Of a stretch of 64,000 bases of DNA, positions 1,885-62,251 are shown piece after piece; the first letter of the stretch is position 1, and each line of letters starts with the position of its first letter. Under the pieces are notes generated by a model. The model made no database searches. It was given only the letters and a program-made list of their open reading frames with translations, and was not told the DNA's origin. Both the position numbers and the translations under genes were made by a program. The stretch comes from an uncultured Bacilli bacterium (GTDB lineage Bacteria > Bacillota_I > Bacilli_A > RF39 > UBA660), in the NCBI GenBank assembly GCA_934120715.1, contig CAKOUW010000001.1:262599-326598 (forward strand), given 5' to 3'.

Positions 1885-2652
1885 TTATACTTTTCTTGAT
1901 TGTATTTCTGCAATCTTTTCTAGTACTTCTTTGGCATTATCTTCATTTATTTCTGTATATCCTAATTCTCTTAATGCCTGCACTTTTGCGGTATTTAGTT
2001 CTTGCGTTCTAGAAAGCCTTTCCTCATTTTTATGCTCGATGTCTTCTACAAAACGTTTATGTGTTTCATTTAATCTATTTTTTGAAGCACCACCATTGTT
2101 GTATAGTGTCATGGCACTGAACATAATACTTTCAAATATGAATTGTTTTTCCTTATTAAAGGCAAATTCTAGAGGCTCTGTAAATCCCAAAGATTTTGAT
2201 ACATAAGCTAACATATATTTTAATTCATTACTAGTTTCCATGGATTGTAGGAAATGGTGTAGATATAAATAAGTGTTATATGTGTTTTTAGTTTTATCTG
2301 ATGATAATTTCTCCTTTAATAGATTTATAATGTCTGATAATAGTTCTTGCTCTTTTTTATTAAATCCCTTTAGATCAGAAATTAATTCTTTATTACTATT
2401 ATCTTTTACCCCTTCGTTTAATCTTTTTTCGATGCCAATAATATAATCACCAGTTATTTTTAATGATCCAAGTCCTTCTATTGATTCAATGTTTAGCAAG
2501 TTTAATAATTTTGCAGCTTTTTCCTTTGGCCATTTATTTAAGTTATCTAAGGCTAAATAATTATATAGCATTTGTCTTGATACACCCAAATATTTTGCTA
2601 AACGCACTTTACTAATTCCGAGTTCTGTTAAGACATTGTTTAATTCTTTCAT
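1885..2652 (-). CDS. XRE-family helix-turn-helix transcriptional regulator (255 aa)
   Basis: N-terminal HTH segment LAKYLGVSRQMLYNYL, typical of Cro/C1-type DNA-binding domains. Confidence 0.6.
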   Translation of the reverse strand: MKELNNVLTELGISKVRLAKYLGVSRQMLYNYLALDNLNKWPKEKAAKLLNLLNIESIEGLGSLKITGDYIIGIEKRLNEGVKDNSNKELISDLKGFNKKEQELLSDIINLLKEKLSSDKTKNTYNTYLYLHHFLQSMETSNELKYMLAYVSKSLGFTEPLEFAFNKEKQFIFESIMFSAMTLYNNGGASKNRLNETHKRFVEDIEHKNEERLSRTQELNTAKVQALRELGYTEINEDNAKEVLEKIAEIQSRKV

Positions 2653-2732: not shown

Positions 2733-3332
2733 TTATAAAATTATTTTTAGTATATTTGGTATTAAGTAAGCTTCAATAACTGAAGATATACTGTAGGCAA
2801 TAGTGCAAATAATTAATGTTTTAATATACCTTTTGACTATGATACTTCTACTATATTCTTTTTTTCTAAAATAATAATTAAATATCATTATAGAAAATTT
2901 TATAGCGTAATAAGATAAAACAAATAGTAATAATATATTAATAATATGAGGAATAATATATATAATTCCCCATAATATTCCTTTTAATTTGAAATTATAA
3001 ATGAAACTGACAAGGGTAAAGCCCAATACGAAGCTTTTAATGCCTAAAATTAATATTATAATTGGTATTCCTATTATTGATATTCCTATTATCCATACTA
3101 ATGTATTTATTATTATGTTATTACTAAGACTTCTATATAATGTATTAAGATTATTTTGTTTATTATTTTTAATTGTATCTATAAAGTTATTTAAATTAGT
3201 CAGTATTAATTGCTTATTTTCGTCACTTAAGAAGGCTATAAATAAGCATCCCAATATAAAAGTTATTAATAATATAATTATGAGTATATATAGTGTTTTA
3301 TTGTGTTTAAACTTATTTATTATTTTTTTCAT
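2733..3332 (-). CDS. SpoIIM-like (DUF95) integral membrane protein
   Basis: About 200 aa with five predicted TM segments. Segment IIGIPIIILILGIKSFVLGFTLV resembles the conserved SpoIIM core. Located in a sporulation-rich genome. Confidence 0.5.
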   Translation of the reverse strand: MKKIINKFKHNKTLYILIIILLITFILGCLFIAFLSDENKQLILTNLNNFIDTIKNNKQNNLNTLYRSLSNNIIINTLVWIIGISIIGIPIIILILGIKSFVLGFTLVSFIYNFKLKGILWGIIYIIPHIINILLLFVLSYYAIKFSIMIFNYYFRKKEYSRSIIVKRYIKTLIICTIAYSISSVIEAYLIPNILKIIL

Positions 3333-4468: not shown

Positions 4469-5248
4469 TTATTGTTCTATATATTTATTTTCAAGTATAT
4501 AGTTATAATTCATGTCTAATTTAAATACGTAGATATATTTACCGCTTTTTAAATTGTTTGGTAGTTCTATGCCTTCATTACCATAATATTTTACATCTTC
4601 TGTTAAGTATATTCTGCCATCTTTAGTATATGCTTTTGTTAACTTTTTATCTACTCGGAAGGTTGTGGTATAAGCACTGGTACATTGACCTTCTACATAC
4701 TCTCCTCTTTTCTCAATGTATTGATAACCACCGATACAATTATTTCCTAATTGAATATTTCTATCTATTAAATTATTGTCGCTTCCAAACAGCTCACTAT
4801 ATGCTAAATGAAGAGATTCAACTTTAAAGGCTTGAGGATGAGTTTCTTCAGTTTCTATACATGTATATGAAACCATACTTGTGTCACTGAAAAGATTACA
4901 ATTTGAATCATAAAACTTACTATTTGGAATTTGTCTAAAGGCAAGATATAATTTATAATTGTCGTCCATGGTACTAGATAAAGCAAGGTCCTCCCTTATA
5001 TTGGTTGAAACTTTATTGTATAAGGATTTAACTATGGAAGAATCTATTTCTAATTTTTTTTCTCCTTTATCACTAATGGGAGTACAATTGTATTTTAACT
5101 GAGCTATTTCCTGTTGGTGCTTAATGTATATATAGCAGGTAAAAAAACAAAACATAGATATTAGTAATAGTATAAAAATAGTTTGTGAGGCACTTTTTTT
5201 ATAAATGATTTTTGTGTCATTGTTCATCTTTATCACCCTTTTATTCAT
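4469..5248 (-). CDS. membrane-anchored or secreted hypothetical protein (259 aa)
   Basis: N-terminal TM/signal anchor followed by a hydrophilic, Tyr-rich extracytoplasmic region. Confidence 0.45.
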   Translation of the reverse strand: MNKRVIKMNNDTKIIYKKSASQTIFILLLISMFCFFTCYIYIKHQQEIAQLKYNCTPISDKGEKKLEIDSSIVKSLYNKVSTNIREDLALSSTMDDNYKLYLAFRQIPNSKFYDSNCNLFSDTSMVSYTCIETEETHPQAFKVESLHLAYSELFGSDNNLIDRNIQLGNNCIGGYQYIEKRGEYVEGQCTSAYTTTFRVDKKLTKAYTKDGRIYLTEDVKYYGNEGIELPNNLKSGKYIYVFKLDMNYNYILENKYIEQ

Positions 5249-25279: not shown

Positions 25280-26938
25280 TTATTTATTAATATATTTTTT
25301 ATATAAGTTTATTCTAGCTTTTATTCTATCTTTGCCTAATATTTTCATGATTGAAAATAAATCTGGTGATTTACTTCTTCCTGTTACCATTACTCTTAGT
25401 GCTTCACAAATATCACCAACATGGCCTTTATATAATTCAGGATTTTTCTTATAATCTTTTGGACTAGCTGCATATCCATTTTTAGTTGCGAAATCCTTAG
25501 TCATATTAAACCACTCTTCATTAGTAGCATCTAGATCTAATGCTTCTAGATAATCTAAGGCTAAGTCAATATCATATTCTTTGTCACCATCATATTTGGA
25601 ATAATTTTCTTTAATAAATAAACTGTCAATAGCATAGGAAAATTCTTCCTTAACATCACTGTATTTTGAAATATCTTTTCTTGGTCTTGGTCCTTCTTTT
25701 TCAATATTTAAGAATTTTTGCATATCATCTTTATTAGCTTTTAATAATTCAGCATATTCTGGATCATATTTATTAGCCCAAGATAGCGTTTCATTATAAA
25801 CTTCTTCACCTTTTTTTCTAGAAAAATAAGTTTTACATATATTGTTGAATTTTGCTTCATCAAAGCTTGTACCACCTATTGCTTGCTTATCAAAACTAAA
25901 TGTGAAGTCTTTTATACTCTTCTCTTGATTTTCTAGATACCATTCTTCAAAATTTGTATTTGCAATGGTTGCTAGATAAAGGTGTAGAGCTTCTATTGGT
26001 ATTCCACCTTCCTCATAGAATTTTACACCAGCCCAAGGGTCTTTTCTTTTACTTATTTTTCTGATTGCGCCTGTTTCTTTATCTTTTATAGTTATTGGGG
26101 CAATGTGGGCATATTCTGGTCGCTTAAAGCCTAATATTTCAAAAAGTTGAATATGTAGTGGTATACTTGAAACCCATTCATCACCACGGATAACATGAGT
26201 TGTATGCATTAAGTGATCATCGATTGCATGAGCAAAGTGATATGTTGGGATACCATCTTTTTTTAGTAATACTGTATCTACATCATGTTCAGGAAATTTC
26301 ATTTTACCTTTAATACAGTCTACTATTTCAACTTGCTTTGTAGGATCGCCTGGAGATTTTAGTCTTATAACGTATTCTAAGCCTGCGGCTATTTTTTCTT
26401 TTACTTCAGCAAGGGACAAATCACGATCAACTGCGTATTGACCATATATGCCAATTTTTGTTTTATTAATTTCTTGTTCTTCTCTTATTTCGGCAATTTC
26501 TTCTTCTGTCATAAAGCATGGATAAGCATATCCATTTATTATTAAATCTTTTACGTATGTTTGATAAATTTCTATTCTTTCGCTTTGCCTATATGGACCA
26601 TAAATTCCATCAAAACTATAACCTTCGTTTGGCATTATATCAAAGCCATGTAATACACCAACTATATTTTCAATTCCACCCTCAACCATTCTTTTTTGAT
26701 CGGTATCTTCAATTCTTAGGAAGAAACTTCCATTTGATTGTCTGGCATAAACCATATCGCAGAAAGCTGAGAATAAGTTTCCTAAATGAACACTACCAGT
26801 TGGTGATGGTCCATATCTTGTTACCATTGCTCCTTCTGGAAGATTTCTCTCTGGGTATTTTTCTTCAAAATAACTACGACTATGTTTTATATTTGGAAAT
26901 AATAATTCAGCTAATTCAATTCTTTCATTTTTTTCCAT
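25280..26938 (-). CDS. gltX: glutamate--tRNA ligase (GluRS family, 552 aa)
   Basis: Class I motifs PSPTGSVHLGN (HIGH-type), RIEDTDQKR, KISKRK (KMSKS-type). Longer than typical GluRS. Confidence 0.8.
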   Translation of the reverse strand: MEKNERIELAELLFPNIKHSRSYFEEKYPERNLPEGAMVTRYGPSPTGSVHLGNLFSAFCDMVYARQSNGSFFLRIEDTDQKRMVEGGIENIVGVLHGFDIMPNEGYSFDGIYGPYRQSERIEIYQTYVKDLIINGYAYPCFMTEEEIAEIREEQEINKTKIGIYGQYAVDRDLSLAEVKEKIAAGLEYVIRLKSPGDPTKQVEIVDCIKGKMKFPEHDVDTVLLKKDGIPTYHFAHAIDDHLMHTTHVIRGDEWVSSIPLHIQLFEILGFKRPEYAHIAPITIKDKETGAIRKISKRKDPWAGVKFYEEGGIPIEALHLYLATIANTNFEEWYLENQEKSIKDFTFSFDKQAIGGTSFDEAKFNNICKTYFSRKKGEEVYNETLSWANKYDPEYAELLKANKDDMQKFLNIEKEGPRPRKDISKYSDVKEEFSYAIDSLFIKENYSKYDGDKEYDIDLALDYLEALDLDATNEEWFNMTKDFATKNGYAASPKDYKKNPELYKGHVGDICEALRVMVTGRSKSPDLFSIMKILGKDRIKARINLYKKYINK

Positions 26939-27028
26939 GCTACACCTCTTCTCAATTCATATATAATAATATAATAAAATGTAATAAAAAGCAAATAAAA
27001 AAGTCCTTATTAGGACTATTAACAAATT

Positions 27029-27103
27029 TGGCTGCCCCAGTTAGATTCGAACTAACGCGTCGTGCGGTCAGAGCGCACTGCCTTACCGCTTGGCTATGGG
27101 GCA
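27029..27103 (-). tRNA. tRNA-Gln (anticodon CUG)
   Basis: Hand-folded cloverleaf: D-arm AGCCAAGCGGTAAGGCA typical of tRNA-Gln, anticodon stem GTGCG/CGCAC with loop CTCTGAC, encoded CCA. Hairpin plus T-run terminator at ~27000-27025. Confidence 0.8.
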
Positions 27104-38841: not shown

Positions 38842-40188
38842 TTATCTTTCGTAATCATCTTTTTCTTTGCTTAAATCTAAATCTTCAATGTCATCATCAT
38901 CTAAAACATTGTCTTCATACATTTCATTAACAACATCAATGTATTTATCGTCTTTATCATACCAACTATGAAGTTTATCATGTAAGAAAGACATTAGTTT
39001 CTCGAACTTATCTTTCCAATAGTTTAGTGTATCCTTTAAATCATTTATTTTAGATTTTAAAAATGATATTTCATTATCTTTTTCTTTTATAGTATCATTT
39101 AAAGTCTTAACTCTTAAATTAAGTGCTTCATTATTTTCAGTAAGAGTTCTAATTTTATCGTTCTTATCTTTTAATTGTTCATGGGCATTAACTAATGTAT
39201 TAGATAAGGTTTGTATTTTATCATATTCTTTACTAGTATTATCTACTTGTTCGATAAAGTCGATAAAAGAATCTTTATCTTCTTTTGATAAAATATAATT
39301 ATCTTTATTTAGTTTAGATGTTTTTAATTTATCAATTTTATCTTTTATATCTTTGTAGTTTTGTTTTAACTCTGAAGATTTTTTATTTGCTTGTTTTAGA
39401 TTTTCAGTATTTTTTTCAATTTGTTTCTTCATCTCAATATAGTTATCCATATCGGACACATGAATATCTCTGTTTCTACCTTTTTGTTTTTTCTTTAAAG
39501 TAGATTCTAACCTATATACTTGGTTAAATTCTTCAATACATAATGTTCTCATTTTATCTTGTAATCTTATTAGAGATTCTTTTGTAAATACATCGGATTT
39601 ACCAACTTGTTTTTCCATTCCATTTTTATTCTTATATTTAATTGGAACACCAACAATATGTAAGTGTGGACTAGTCTCATCATAATGGATTATAGCACTA
39701 GCTACTTTAAAATTAGGAACTAATAATTCTAAATCATTAACTTGTTTTTTATAGACTTCTGACATTTTCCTTTTAAAATCTTCATCTTTGGTATCCCAGT
39801 ATTCTTTATCTCCAAGTTCAAGAATTATTTCACAAGCAAGATCCTTTTTCTCATTATTAGATACATTATCAAAATAATTATCTATCATTCTACTAGGTCT
39901 AGATTGTTTAGAATTGTATTCAAGTCTTACTTCTTCAAACTCACTTAAATATAATTCTTTTACATCATCAAGTGGAGAAGAAGTTCCTCTTACTATTTCA
40001 ATTAGTTCTTGTTGATTATCATATTTTCTATAATTATGTTTATCTACCTTTGATAATTGTCTTACATTTTGAATTGCATTATTTGGTAAAGAAGTTGTTC
40101 CACTTAAATTATTTTTACCATTTTGTTTAGATATATTTTTTCTATTTTTATCACTACCTAAATGTAGGGAATAAGCAAGTTCTGACAT
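38842..40188 (-). CDS. Mob/Pre-family (MobM-like) plasmid-recombination relaxase
   Basis: HxDExTPHxH motif (HYDETSPHLHIV) in the N-terminal relaxase domain. Long coiled-coil C-terminal half typical of MobM/Pre. Confidence 0.7.
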   Translation of the reverse strand: MSELAYSLHLGSDKNRKNISKQNGKNNLSGTTSLPNNAIQNVRQLSKVDKHNYRKYDNQQELIEIVRGTSSPLDDVKELYLSEFEEVRLEYNSKQSRPSRMIDNYFDNVSNNEKKDLACEIILELGDKEYWDTKDEDFKRKMSEVYKKQVNDLELLVPNFKVASAIIHYDETSPHLHIVGVPIKYKNKNGMEKQVGKSDVFTKESLIRLQDKMRTLCIEEFNQVYRLESTLKKKQKGRNRDIHVSDMDNYIEMKKQIEKNTENLKQANKKSSELKQNYKDIKDKIDKLKTSKLNKDNYILSKEDKDSFIDFIEQVDNTSKEYDKIQTLSNTLVNAHEQLKDKNDKIRTLTENNEALNLRVKTLNDTIKEKDNEISFLKSKINDLKDTLNYWKDKFEKLMSFLHDKLHSWYDKDDKYIDVVNEMYEDNVLDDDDIEDLDLSKEKDDYER

Positions 40189-40204
40189 AGTTTTCCTCCT
40201 TTCA

Positions 40205-40315
40205 AGAAGTGACCACTTGAGTGGTCATTTTGGCCATCCAAAATTTCTAACCCCCTAGGAATTTTGTACGTTCCATACAAAATATCCAGTGGGCTAAGGT
40301 TTAACACCTTAGAAT
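40205..40315. promoter_or_regulatory. candidate oriT: cluster of three inverted repeats just upstream of the relaxase gene
   Basis: TGACCACT-TG-AGTGGTCA (40210-40227); ATTTTGTA...TACAAAAT (40261-40283); CTAAGG...CCTTAG (40294-40312). Confidence 0.35.
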
Positions 40316-40438
40316 CCGTTTACTTTATTCCGTAATAACCAAAACTTCGTAATGGTTAAAACTACATAAAGTATTAATTTTTAAATTGCTATCGCCACTT
40401 ACAAAATTACTTTGTAATTTCATAACGTGCCACGCATT

Positions 40439-42298
<1,860 letters not shown>

Positions 42299-42513
42299 TC
42301 AACTCCTTTTCCTACAAAAAAGGGAGTCAAAAATACTAGTTAAAACTAATACCTTTGACTCCACTTAATTTCATATTATATTTTTTATTAATTGTGCTTT
42401 TGACCATAGTGTACCTCCTTTTTAATAAAAGACGGATACTGCTTGTCATTTATTGGTTTTATATAATATACTCAAAAATCCATTTTGTCAATTCCCTGAT
42501 TAGAGTATAGATA

Positions 42514-42795
42514 TTAGTTATGTTTTAAATAATTTTCTAATTCAGATAGTTTAATCTTATTATTTAAGTTTTCAATAAATATCTCATTAGAATAATTAAA
42601 AGCTAGAAAGGTTATATCGTTAATTATAATTCTATGTGGTTCTAAATATATAAGATTAGTTTTATCTATTGTCCTTAAATTACCATTAATAATAATTGGT
42701 TTAACACTACAAAACTCACAAATAAATTCTAATCTCTTTTTTAATGATTCTTCCATTCTAACTTCTTGCTTGATAACATTTACCATTTTAATCAA
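42514..42795 (-). CDS. hypothetical protein (93 aa) upstream of the recombinase
   Basis: ORF only. Could be an accessory or directionality factor, but there is no motif support. Confidence 0.35.
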   Translation of the reverse strand: MIKMVNVIKQEVRMEESLKKRLEFICEFCSVKPIIINGNLRTIDKTNLIYLEPHRIIINDITFLAFNYSNEIFIENLNNKIKLSELENYLKHN

Positions 42796-42904
42796 TCCTT
42801 TCTTTGAAAGACTTTTTTCTAAACAAGAAAAAAATCAATCCTAATTTAGAATTGATTGTCTATTTATTCTCGAAACTATAAAAAGTTCGAGCGGATTTCC
42901 CTAT

Positions 42905-42977
42905 GGTGCCGAAAGACAGAATTGAACTGTCCGCTGATCCTTACCAAGGACCTGTTTTACCACTAAACTATATCGGC
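42905..42977 (-). tRNA. tRNA-Thr (anticodon GGU)
   Basis: Hand-folded: acceptor GCCGATA with one mismatch, anticodon loop TTGGTAA, T-loop TTCAATT, encoded CCA. Confidence 0.7.
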
Positions 42978-60324: not shown

Positions 60325-61620
60325 TTAAATATTAATTATTTCATCTATTTTATTTAGCTCATCAAATTGGATTTTATTCTCTTCACCCGTAAGCATATTT
60401 TTAACATTAAATGAATTACTACTTACTTCATCTTCACCTAGAACAATTACATATGGTATCTTTTCTTTATTGGCATAGTCCATGTTCTTTTTAAATTTTT
60501 TCTTACCCATTTCAATTTCAACATTGTATCCTAGACTTCTTATTTCATTACCAATTTTTAAACTTTCTATTTCTGTATTTATAGGGATAATATAAAAATC
60601 AGTTTGTGATTTGGCATTAAATAATTCTCTATTTTTCAATAACTCATATATTGATGATAGTCCAAAACTTATTCCTACAGTTGGATACTCGTTTCCGTCA
60701 TTTATAAAACTACCAATAATTTTGTCATATCTTCCACCGCCACCTATGCTGCCTTTTATTCTTTCATTTTTCTCATATACCTCAAAAACGTTTCCGGTAT
60801 AGTAATTTTGACCCCTAGCTAGACTAACTGAAAACTTACAAATATCAGCAATATCTATCCCTTTTAGATATTTATTTAAATTATTTAATTCTTCTAATCC
60901 TACTTTTATCTTTTTATTTTCAGTATTTTTAAATAAATCAGTTAAATCAGACAATCCCATATTGAAATATTTACTTAACATTGAGATCTGACTTTTGTCT
61001 AAGCCGATTTCACTTAAAAGTTTATTCATTTCCTCTATGCTTAACTTATCTTTTTTATCTATTATTGTTGTGGTCTTTGAAACCAACTCCTCTTGTATAC
61101 CACTTTCTAGGATTAATCCTGTCATTAAATTTCTGCTGTTATATTTAATCACTATATCGATATCTAATTTTTTAAAGGCTTTGGCATATAGTGATAATAA
61201 TTCAGCTTCAATAAATTGTCCTTTAATACCCACAACATCAGCATCACATTGAGTAAACTCTCTATCTCTACCAACTTTGACTGGACCATCTCTAAATACT
61301 TTGCTTATCTCATATCTTTTAAATGGAAAAGAAATATTATTTTTATTTAGTGCTATAAACTTGGCAAAGGGAACCGTTAAGTCATACCTTAGACCTAGAT
61401 CTCTATTTCCTTGATCCTTTAGTCTATATATTTCTTTTAATATGTCATTATTTTCATCATACTTATCTGCTAGCATATCATAATAACATAGTATTGGTGT
61501 TTCAATTGAATTAAATCCATATTCTTCAAAAGTTTCTTTTAATATATTATTAATATAATTTCTTATTCTTTGTTCTTTAGGTAGAAAATCATATCCACCT
61601 TTAACATTTTGGATTTTCAT
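60325..61620 (-). CDS. hisS: histidine--tRNA ligase
   Basis: Class II motifs including motif 3 GGGGRYD. C-terminal anticodon-binding domain present, so HisRS rather than HisZ. Confidence 0.85.
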   Translation of the reverse strand: MKIQNVKGGYDFLPKEQRIRNYINNILKETFEEYGFNSIETPILCYYDMLADKYDENNDILKEIYRLKDQGNRDLGLRYDLTVPFAKFIALNKNNISFPFKRYEISKVFRDGPVKVGRDREFTQCDADVVGIKGQFIEAELLSLYAKAFKKLDIDIVIKYNSRNLMTGLILESGIQEELVSKTTTIIDKKDKLSIEEMNKLLSEIGLDKSQISMLSKYFNMGLSDLTDLFKNTENKKIKVGLEELNNLNKYLKGIDIADICKFSVSLARGQNYYTGNVFEVYEKNERIKGSIGGGGRYDKIIGSFINDGNEYPTVGISFGLSSIYELLKNRELFNAKSQTDFYIIPINTEIESLKIGNEIRSLGYNVEIEMGKKKFKKNMDYANKEKIPYVIVLGEDEVSSNSFNVKNMLTGEENKIQFDELNKIDEIINI

Positions 61621-61640
61621 AATTAATCATCTCCTTTTTT

Positions 61641-61672
61641 TAATTAAAAATGCTACTGCGGCTTGCAGTAGC
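61641..61672 (-). terminator. leader terminator/attenuator immediately upstream of the hisS RBS
   Basis: GCTACTGC-aagcc-GCAGTAGC (8-bp stem) followed by TTTTTAATTAAAAAAAGGAG and the hisS ATG. Confidence 0.55.
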
Positions 61673-61741
61673 ATAATAGAGATTTATCGTTTATTATACT
61701 AGATACAAGCACGACAAACAGCACTTGTACCTACGAATTTT

Positions 61742-61807
61742 TTAATGTCGTATTAACAAGTGCAGACTATTATGATGATGATTAAATTTATTTATTGTTT
61801 TAAACAT
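61742..61807 (-). CDS. candidate His-rich leader peptide (MFKTINKFNHHNSLHLLIRH, 20 aa)
   Basis: AAGGGAGAG RBS 8 nt upstream. 5 His codons in 20. Lies between a TTGACA-17-TACAAT promoter (61833-61861) and the leader terminator. Confidence 0.4.
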   Translation of the reverse strand: MFKTINKFNHHHNSLHLLIRH

Positions 61808-61927
61808 AATAATCTCTCCCTTCGATAGTGAAATTGTAACATATATGATAATTTATGTCAAATTAACGAGAATCGCTTATTTTTCAATGTATATTTTGTA
61901 TAGAATGGTCCTACTGAAATACTTTGA

Positions 61928-62251
61928 TCAGCAGTTACTTGCATTGATATTTTTATTGATCCATTCGATAATATCACTGCTTCCTTTTATTTCATAATAT
62001 GAAATTTCTGGAACTTTATAATTATGAATGTTCTTAATAGTTTGCTCAATTTTATTATATAATGGCTCAATTGTTCTTATTGTTAGACAGTATTCCTCGG
62101 ACTCATTTATTTTATCATCCCACCAATATGATGATTTTGTCTTTGTTATTTGACAGCCTGCTGCCAGATGATCTTTCAATAATTTTTTCTGGATCTGTCT
62201 TATTGTATTTAAATTATTTGATAAAGTAGTTATAACTATACATTTATTCAT
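61928..62251 (-). CDS. cutA: CutA1-family divalent-cation tolerance protein
   Basis: 107 aa. C-terminal H(N/P)Y(K/E)VPE motif (HNYKVPEISYYEIKG) and overall CutA-like pattern. Confidence 0.55.
   Translation of the reverse strand: MNKCIVITTLSNNLNTIRQIQKKLLKDHLAAGCQITKTKSSYWWDDKINESEEYCLTIRTIEPLYNKIEQTIKNIHNYKVPEISYYEIKGSSDIIEWINKNINASNC

Follow-up and report, generated by a model that had tools for sequence, protein, structure and literature searches.

Leader peptides that sense an amino acid are textbook knowledge in the Proteobacteria and are rare in the Firmicutes, where T-boxes serve the genes for tRNA synthetases. The synthetase operon pheST of E. coli is under the control of a leader peptide rich in cognate codons (pheM) and a terminator, and in the enterobacterial his and trp leaders the regulatory codons are located inside the first segment of the leader RNA, which is masked by the stalled ribosome. 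For the Firmicutes, Naville & Gautheret noted in 2010 the replacement of T-boxes by "regular" leader peptides, and predicted one with His codons ahead of a Bacillus hisS paralogue (hisS*) and of hisZ (PMC2965389). Experiments on B. subtilis bmrB-bmrCD have shown that the antiterminator does not form when the leader is translated efficiently (PMC4191407). Here, the region upstream of the hisS gene was examined in a 64,000-nucleotide stretch of the genome of an uncultured Bacilli bacterium of the gut (contig CAKOUW010000001.1, positions 262,599 to 326,598), and this whole 64-kb stretch is referred to below as the window. The gene is preceded by a leader of roughly 210 nt, driven by a strong promoter, which is a leader-peptide transcription attenuator by every computationally testable feature, namely a short open reading frame (ORF) with its own Shine-Dalgarno (SD) sequence, a cluster of cognate codons, an intrinsic terminator and an antiterminator that excludes the terminator.

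Every element listed upstream of hisS by an earlier reading of the letters alone (the sequence-only reading) was found at 61621..61861 on the minus strand (Table 1), though some of the details changed. The near-consensus promoter that had been described scores 11 of 12, carries a TG extension and was the top match of the 2.6-kb region scanned. The leader ORF with its ribosome-binding site and five His codons is also present, but it has 21 codons and not 20, one His of the HHH run having been dropped. The strong terminator has a 5-nt loop and a stem of 10 bp (5 G-C), where 8 bp had been counted, and the hairpin with its T-run is the sole terminator-like site in the 2.6 kb scanned, in which 0.4 were expected. 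The T-run had been thought to run straight into the hisS ribosome-binding site, but a spacer of ~9 nt (AATTAAAAA) lies between them. No match to the 21-aa leader peptide was found in Pfam or NCBIfam, and no second copy of the leader was found in the window. The HisRS homologues have the domains PF13393 (tRNA-synt_His) and PF03129 (anticodon-binding domain), and the HisRS encoded in the window shares up to 97% identity with metagenomic proteins and 71% identity with proteins named histidine--tRNA ligase from "Bacilli bacterium". In annotation, the small ORF would be better called a leader peptide than a hypothetical protein.

Table 1. Elements of the hisS leader and their positions in the window
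Feature	Coordinates	Strand	Remarks
Promoter TTGACA-17-TACAAT, sigma-70-type	61833..61861	-	-35 TTGACA at 61861..61856; TG-extended -10 TACAAT at 61838..61833
SD of leader ORF, AAGGGAGAG	61814..61822	-	6 nt 5' of the ATG
Leader ORF, MFKTINKFNHHHNSLHLLIRH, 21 codons + stop	61742..61807	-	Own SD; five His codons in total
His sensor CAT CAT CAT	61772..61780	-	Codons 10-12; three consecutive His codons
Segment 1, GCACTTGT	61756..61763	-	Within the ORF, codons 15-18; partner is segment 2 (1:2 with inner hairpin, -15.5 kcal/mol)
Inner hairpin (ACGAC...TCGT)	61733..61751	-	Between segments 1 and 2; leader stop TAA (61744..61742) in its loop region
Segment 2, GGTACAAGTGC	61721..61731	-	Partner is segment 1 or segment 3 (2:3, -12.1 kcal/mol)
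Segment 3, GTGCTTGTATC + TAGTATAATA	61692..61712	-	Segment 2 is the partner of its 5' part; for most of its length, segment 4 is a partner too (antiterminator)
Segment 4, TATTATGCTACTGCAAGC	61661..61678	-	Terminator 5' arm and loop; partner is segment 3 (17 bp, ~-14.6 kcal/mol) or segment 5
Intrinsic terminator, ATGCTACTGC-AAGCC-GCAGTAGCAT + T-run	61646..61674	-	Hairpin 61674..61650; T-run ends at 61646; ~-15.1 kcal/mol (4:5)
Segment 5, GCAGTAGCAT	61659..61650	-	Followed by the T-run
SD of hisS, AAGGAG	61631..61636	-	Outside all predicted helices
hisS, histidine--tRNA ligase, 431 aa	60325..61620	-	ATG at 61620; regulated gene

The five segments of the leader are built on an alternating CTTGT/ACAAG motif, and two mutually exclusive folds of them were found. 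In the ON fold, segment 1 pairs with segment 2 and segment 3 with segment 4 (1:2 + 3:4, of which 3:4 is the antiterminator), and in the OFF fold segment 2 pairs with segment 3 and segment 4 with segment 5 (2:3 + 4:5, of which 4:5 is the terminator). In the window, the four helices are close to one another in strength (-12.1 to -15.5 kcal/mol). The exclusive antiterminator and terminator helices that the sequence-only reading had proposed to look for thus exist, both in constrained folds and by covariation. A six-segment arrangement as in his, in which TAGTATAATA would form a segment of its own, was dropped, because in the constrained folds and in the relatives segment 3 pairs as a single block with the 5' arm and loop of the terminator. 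It is quite probable that the leader is a histidine-specific, ribosome-mediated transcription attenuator placed before hisS and switching between these ON and OFF folds. Most likely, the switch raises production of the synthetase when charged tRNA-His is short, and so takes the part played by a T-box in most related bacteria.

The absence of a T-box, which had been noted from the letters, was borne out by covariance-model scanning. The whole window, searched with Rfam release 15 at gathering thresholds, contained no T-box, His_leader, riboswitch or other cis-regulatory family and only tRNAs were matched, and when the threshold was relaxed to E<=10 for 61500..62000 nothing credible, and neither a T-box nor His_leader (RF00514), was obtained. 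The hisS loci of 86 relatives were fetched, and 40 of these (262 kb) were searched in the same way; no T-box (RF00230) or other Rfam cis-family was found in them, only tRNAs.

To follow the leader in relatives, one genome per species was scanned, giving 80 species-level hisS loci (numbered with the prefix L below). Their source genomes are labelled uncultured Bacilli, Candidatus Coprovivens (Bacilli incertae sedis according to NCBI), Clostridium sp. CAG:609, "Tenericutes" and others, and gut metagenomes are the source of the closest HisRS proteins, of which a few carry a name, "Bacilli bacterium". A covariance model, R1, was built here from the OFF fold only, and it matched upstream of hisS, on the hisS strand, in 61 of the 80 species loci (E<=2e-6) as well as in the window (61646..61780, 108 bits), L081 and L085/86. 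The SD, ATG, His run, helices and terminator are conserved in these 61 species and both folds covary, in agreement with the proposal of ribosome-mediated attenuation by a His-codon leader peptide. A diverged form was found in three further loci, L078-L080 (52-54% HisRS identity), which have another primary sequence and the same 1:2 + 3:4 / 2:3 + 4:5 topology, with leader peptides ending ...QLHHHRRSL before the stop. A set of 29 loci was at first taken to be leaderless, and this was overturned by R1, since 14 of them have the leader at a distance of 0.5-2.5 kb 5' of hisS and L058 has it immediately next to the gene, on the 5' side. A weak R1 match (29.6 bits) directly before hisS in L073 (1609-1698) has kept GCACTTGT and the terminator, with no recognisable His-run ORF, and may be a decayed leader.

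The outer elements are conserved too. In 50 of 50 relatives there is a promoter with a score of 9-12 of 12 whose -10 ends 22-34 nt 5' of the leader ATG, and in 50 of 50 a hairpin with T-run is located 22-84 nt before the hisS ATG. The leader of L081 (97% HisRS identity) matches that of the window from the SD to the hisS ATG save for one inserted base, and has a few substitutions in the promoter region. The DNA 5' of the -35 box is unrelated in the two, and as the similarity starts at the -35 box a rearrangement breakpoint is located right at the promoter. The sequence upstream of the promoter includes a CutA1-like gene (61928..62251) and a 92-aa ORF in the window, and a UPF0236 (transposase-like) gene on the opposite strand in L081 (window 61862-61900 compared with L081 1080-1160).

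Covariation was assessed on two alignments, the first of which (A2) consisted of 43 five-segment leaders aligned with MAFFT. On A2, the ON fold (1:2, inner hairpin and 3:4) had 91.8% of cells paired, against 21-47% in slid controls, with 11 pairs changed on both sides, and none of 500 shuffles reached the observed value on any of five measures; the OFF fold (2:3 and 4:5) was also 91.8% paired (20-49% when slid). The second alignment was that of the 86 R1 matches (83 distinct sequences), fitted to the OFF fold only. The ON fold, which R1 does not know, was 87.8% paired on these 83 sequences (22-48% when slid), while the OFF fold was 94.4% paired and had compensatory changes at all 11 terminator pairs. 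Taken singly, helix 1:2 had 96.8-97.3% of cells paired, with compensatory G-C to A-U and U-A to C-G changes, the inner hairpin 83-85%, with three pairs changed on both sides, helix 2:3 92-94% and helix 3:4 84-91%, the last two compared with 18-49% in slid controls. Segment 2 covaries with both of its partners, as the seven sequences with U in place of C at its column 71 are also those in which G has given way to A in segment 1 (column 24) and in segment 3 (column 80). A concerted change that runs through every one of the five segments at one position, T>C, A>G, T>C, A>G and T>C, was seen in L023 and L025. All four helices, 1:2, 2:3, 3:4 and 4:5, are supported by covariation.

These data also bear on the possibility that the arrangement arose by chance, with a commonplace promoter, a random short ORF and a remnant of a terminator that together regulate nothing. 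AT-rich genomes are rich in promoter-like hexamers, and 26 were counted in the 2.6 kb where 21 were expected. However, the arrangement has been kept, with covariation, in at least 60 species and about 100 metagenome contigs, and the fold of the 221-nt leader has a z score of -5.55 relative to shuffled sequences, none of 200 being as good. A chance arrangement is already refuted by the comparative data and has next to no probability.

In 50 loci, an ORF of 15-32 codons (most 17-21) that is preceded by an SD and contains HHH was found 60-260 nt before hisS. When instances were located by the RNA core and their frames examined afterwards, an SD and ATG open in frame to the His run were present in 58 of 59 species-level instances, compared with 0 of 59 in each of the other frames. 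The His run is preceded by 7-10 codons, in which the frame is open and the N-terminus is freely variable, and the stop codon is 7-19 nt after the first base of segment 1 in 58 of 59 and always after the start of segment 1. Among 149 distinct instances, a set biased by a metagenome subset picked with a pattern that required His-run length and spacer features, the run is three codons long in 137, with synonymous CAT/CAC variation, and the spacer from His run to segment 1 is 8 nt in 140.

The C-terminal consensus of the peptide is HHHN[SN]LHLLIRH. However, a different frame is used to read the same nucleotides (GCACTTG...) in L016, L023, L025 and L068, giving peptides that end ...NNRTC, ...NNRTCK or ...SNCTC before the stop, which indicates that the LHLLIRH tail is conserved as RNA and that the last two of the window's five His codons are incidental. 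On comparison of the sequences, only the HHH run is conserved at the codon level. Five His codons as the sensor were accordingly rejected, given that the frame-shifted relatives lose the last two and keep the RNA sequence. Of the conservation that the sequence-only reading had suggested looking for in orthologous hisS leaders, the ORF and HHH were found, and the other two His codons are kept only as RNA.

As much of the C-terminal conservation is in fact that of RNA (segment 1 and the inner hairpin), it could be argued that the leader is an untranslated switch, either a divergent T-box-like sensor of tRNA or a protein-binding leader, with the small ORF a by-product, and the CAU repeats could in principle pair with the anticodon of tRNA-His. 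The strict preference for an SD and ATG in the frame of the His run, in a frame that stays open while the N-terminal codons vary, speaks against this, as do the lack of any T-box or other Rfam match even at E<=10 and the lack of a T-box consensus or specifier-loop architecture, making an untranslated switch very improbable. A leader that is translated could instead sense the general speed of translation, such that read-through would follow whenever the ribosome is slowed in the leader, for instance by antibiotics or by starvation in general, and the His run would be incidental. The predicted logic is shared with bmrB, where antibiotics that target the ribosome are sensed, and any stall 5' of segment 1 would do. 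However, the His run is the sole part of the ORF conserved at the codon level, being held at three codons through synonymous changes next to an N-terminus that is free to vary, and the regulated gene is that of the cognate synthetase. A general speed sensor is distinctly unlikely, and a response specific to histidine is preferred.

For the histidine-specific attenuator, the following course of events is proposed. When charged tRNA-His is scarce, the ribosome would stall on the His run, 8 nt before segment 1, and helix 1:2 would stay intact at the mouth of the ribosome, leaving segment 3 free to capture the terminator 5' arm (3:4), so that RNA polymerase would enter hisS. When His-tRNA is plentiful, the ribosome would unwind segment 1 and come to the stop codon 7-19 nt further along, where its front would not quite reach segment 2, and with the ribosome past segment 1 the helices 2:3 and 4:5 would form and transcription would end at the T-run. 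A leader that is not translated would be expected to read through and not to super-attenuate. The elements of this scheme, their conservation, the covariation of the helices and the preserved frame of the ORF were observed as described above, and a response to histidine and a terminated transcript are predicted from them.

We infer which ribosome position selects which fold from the geometry of the leader and from the expectation that starvation induces a synthetase. A ribosome covers ~15 nt from the first P-site base, and at frameshift sites stable structures stand 5-9 nt after the A-site codon. With the first, second or third His codon in the A site, segment 1 starts 14, 11 or 8 nt after that codon, and with a footprint of this size segment 1 should be free and helix 1:2 should survive a stall at any of the three. 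The equilibrium folding of 50 leaders with a ribosome placed on the His run or at the stop codon gave a matching picture. With the ribosome on HHH and the terminator 3' arm untranscribed, 1:2 formed and the terminator 5' arm was paired to segment 3 in 50 of 50 leaders, with at least 5 nt of the arm paired upstream in all 50 and the entire arm in about half, and with the ribosome at the stop codon 2:3 and the terminator formed in 49 of 50. By computation, the choice between antiterminator and terminator would depend on the position of the ribosome.

Several points weigh against this scheme. The direction of the switch rests on the assumed footprint, and a larger one would destabilise 1:2 and predict the opposite response. 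A ribosome that holds the third His codon in its A site extends as far as the first base of segment 1, and in the distant group L078-L080, where the spacer is 6 nt, a ribosome at this position is enough to flip the fold to 2:3. When no ribosome is present, the full-length leader of the window at equilibrium favours 1:2, a local hairpin of segment 3 and the terminator (-40.8 versus about -33 kcal/mol), so that read-through would need kinetic precedence of 3:4. The scheme also requires that the ribosome keeps pace with RNA polymerase, and coupling of transcription and translation is reported to be weak in Bacillus subtilis. Finally, 12-14 of the 80 relatives are without the leader within the DNA fetched, two of these being cut by contig ends.

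Some of these points would suit the same attenuator working with the opposite polarity, in which the stalled ribosome covers segment 1, giving 2:3 and the terminator, so that histidine starvation would lower hisS, and lack of translation would give read-through. The largest plausible footprint with the last His codon in the A site partly covers segment 1, the distant group behaves in the folds as this polarity would have it, and the parity of the segments alone cannot separate the two polarities. However, the first hungry codon would be the first of the three, with segment 1 then 14 nt after the A-site codon, a distance equal to that between the hungry Trp codon and the free segment 2 of the trp leader in E. 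coli. The 8-nt spacer has also been kept in nearly all instances, and shutting down a synthetase and a deacylase operon (see below) during histidine scarcity is physiologically implausible. Masking of segment 1 is thus held to be unlikely, and read-through on a stall at the His run remains the preferred direction.

A shorter, three-segment form of the leader was found in four GTDB loci (L049, at 2860-3003, L052, L057 and L061) and in a dozen or more metagenome contigs. In this form, 2:3 is followed directly by the T-run and is the terminator, and 1:2 is the antiterminator; in the metagenome examples L101, L114 and L137, hisS follows the motif at a distance of 98-99 nt. The five-segment form resembles the three-segment unit with a duplicated hairpin added, and the three-segment form is in effect a trp attenuator minus its segment 1.

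The leader does not always stand directly before hisS. It was found 0.5-2.5 kb upstream, before genes that are apparently co-transcribed with hisS, in L001 (627-2603), in L004, L028, L035-L037, L044 and L054 (leader about 1360-1570, hisS at 3001), in L014, in L015/L019 and in L085 (322-1501). The intervening genes are of three types, a PRTase-like gene with an SLOG gene (LDcluster4, PF18306/TIGR00725-like), an ArgE/DapE-like M20 deacylase gene with or without a GNAT acetyltransferase gene, and a gene for a 494-aa protein of unassigned function. As a guess, these accessory genes may be linked to histidine through salvage of N-acyl-histidine or peptides. The closest species-level relative, L001 (80% HisRS identity), has the order leader-GNAT-M20-hisS and shares the unusual terminator sequence of the window. 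The window itself has only the simple leader-hisS form, and no homologues of GNAT, M20, PRTase or SLOG were found in its 64 kb.

A scan of metagenomes for the core motif of the leader yielded 109 contigs, in which hisS comes right after the leader in about a third, the rest having accessory genes or a contig end. Two copies of the leader were present on single contigs in two cases. In L068 they are divergent, at 2104-2235 (-) and 2844-2970 (+), one serving hisS and the other GNAT-M20, and in L145, at 2060-2186 and 4876-4981, one serves hisS and the second, which is degenerate (peptide ...KHLHHKY before the stop), serves PRTase-SLOG, indicating that the leader defines a small regulon. The family comprises more than 150 distinct instances, is absent from Rfam and is widespread in uncultured gut Bacilli. 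On balance, though with moderate confidence, we regard it as an undescribed "relay" attenuator family in which three or five segments derived from one CTTGT/ACAAG motif are ON by default and translation through segment 1 is needed for termination, and which, throughout a large clade of uncultured gut Bacilli, stands in for the T-box of hisS and controls a histidine-starvation regulon made up of hisS, GNAT with ArgE/DapE-like M20, and PRTase-like with SLOG genes.

Elsewhere in the window, Rfam identified seven tRNA genes and ARAGORN eight. A gene for a class I Glu/Gln-type tRNA synthetase (PF00749, 552 aa; 25280-27103, minus strand) starts about 90 nt 3' of a tRNA-Gln(CTG) gene on the same strand, and no known leader RNA was found between the two. 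Genes for a Mob_Pre relaxase (38842..40188) and a large serine recombinase (40439..42292) adjoin a tRNA-Thr(GGT) gene (42904..42977), and the region 38842-42977 has the appearance of a mobilisable element that has integrated at a tRNA gene.

If the proposed mechanism is true, there is a lineage of the Bacilli in which ribosomes stay close behind RNA polymerase, and if termination needs translation of the leader, the family would be a natural test case for the coupling of transcription and translation in the Bacilli. A usable covariance model is now available for a class of leader that is rare in the Firmicutes, and by its presence before the GNAT-M20 and PRTase-SLOG operons the leader singles out genes with a possible link to the supply of histidine.

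Among known systems, the enterobacterial his leader hisL (RF00514), to which the sequence-only reading had likened the hisS leader, agrees with it in class, as a short ORF with a His run is followed by exclusive hairpins and an intrinsic terminator, and the charging of tRNA-His is read out through the ribosome's position. However, the wiring is different. The enterobacterial leader has seven His codons and six segments (A-F), with the His codons inside the first segment, whereas here there are three His codons and five (or three) segments, the His run ends 8 nt 5' of segment 1 and a stall would preserve the first helix and not mask the first segment. In addition, hisL controls a biosynthetic operon and not a tRNA synthetase gene, and its model has no match in the window. 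The E. coli pheST operon also encodes a synthetase, but is proteobacterial, senses phenylalanine and has the classical trp-like wiring, and there is no sequence relationship between the leaders. The T-box (RF00230) found before hisS in Bacillales, Lactobacillales and Clostridia acts on the same gene, on the signal of uncharged tRNA-His and by antitermination at an intrinsic terminator. A T-box, however, binds the tRNA directly without translation, and none of its defining sequence or structure is present here.

Within the Bacilli, bmrB-bmrCD (PMC4191407) resembles the hisS leader in that slowed translation of the leader lets the antiterminator form and in having anti-antiterminator, antiterminator and terminator helices, but it senses ribosome-targeting antibiotics, has no codon run and has its terminator within the leader ORF. 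The leader of Bacillus hisS*/hisZ (PMC2965389), compared by description only, likewise belongs to a Firmicute and to a gene of the hisS family, and has an ORF with a His stretch and a premature terminator where a T-box is expected. There, the gene is a duplicated paralogue and the main hisS keeps its T-box, whereas no T-box was found before hisS in any locus scanned here and the leader drives other operons too. A full-text literature search found no description of the present leader family, the closest reports being PMC2965389 and PMC4191407. The arrangement is thus unusual in the Firmicutes, as the sequence-only reading had held, but has a predicted precedent (PMC2965389). As a His leader was already predicted for a Bacillus hisS paralogue in 2010, the kind of switch is known, and the family described here is a further, well-supported form of ribosome-mediated attenuation with an odd-numbered relay topology.

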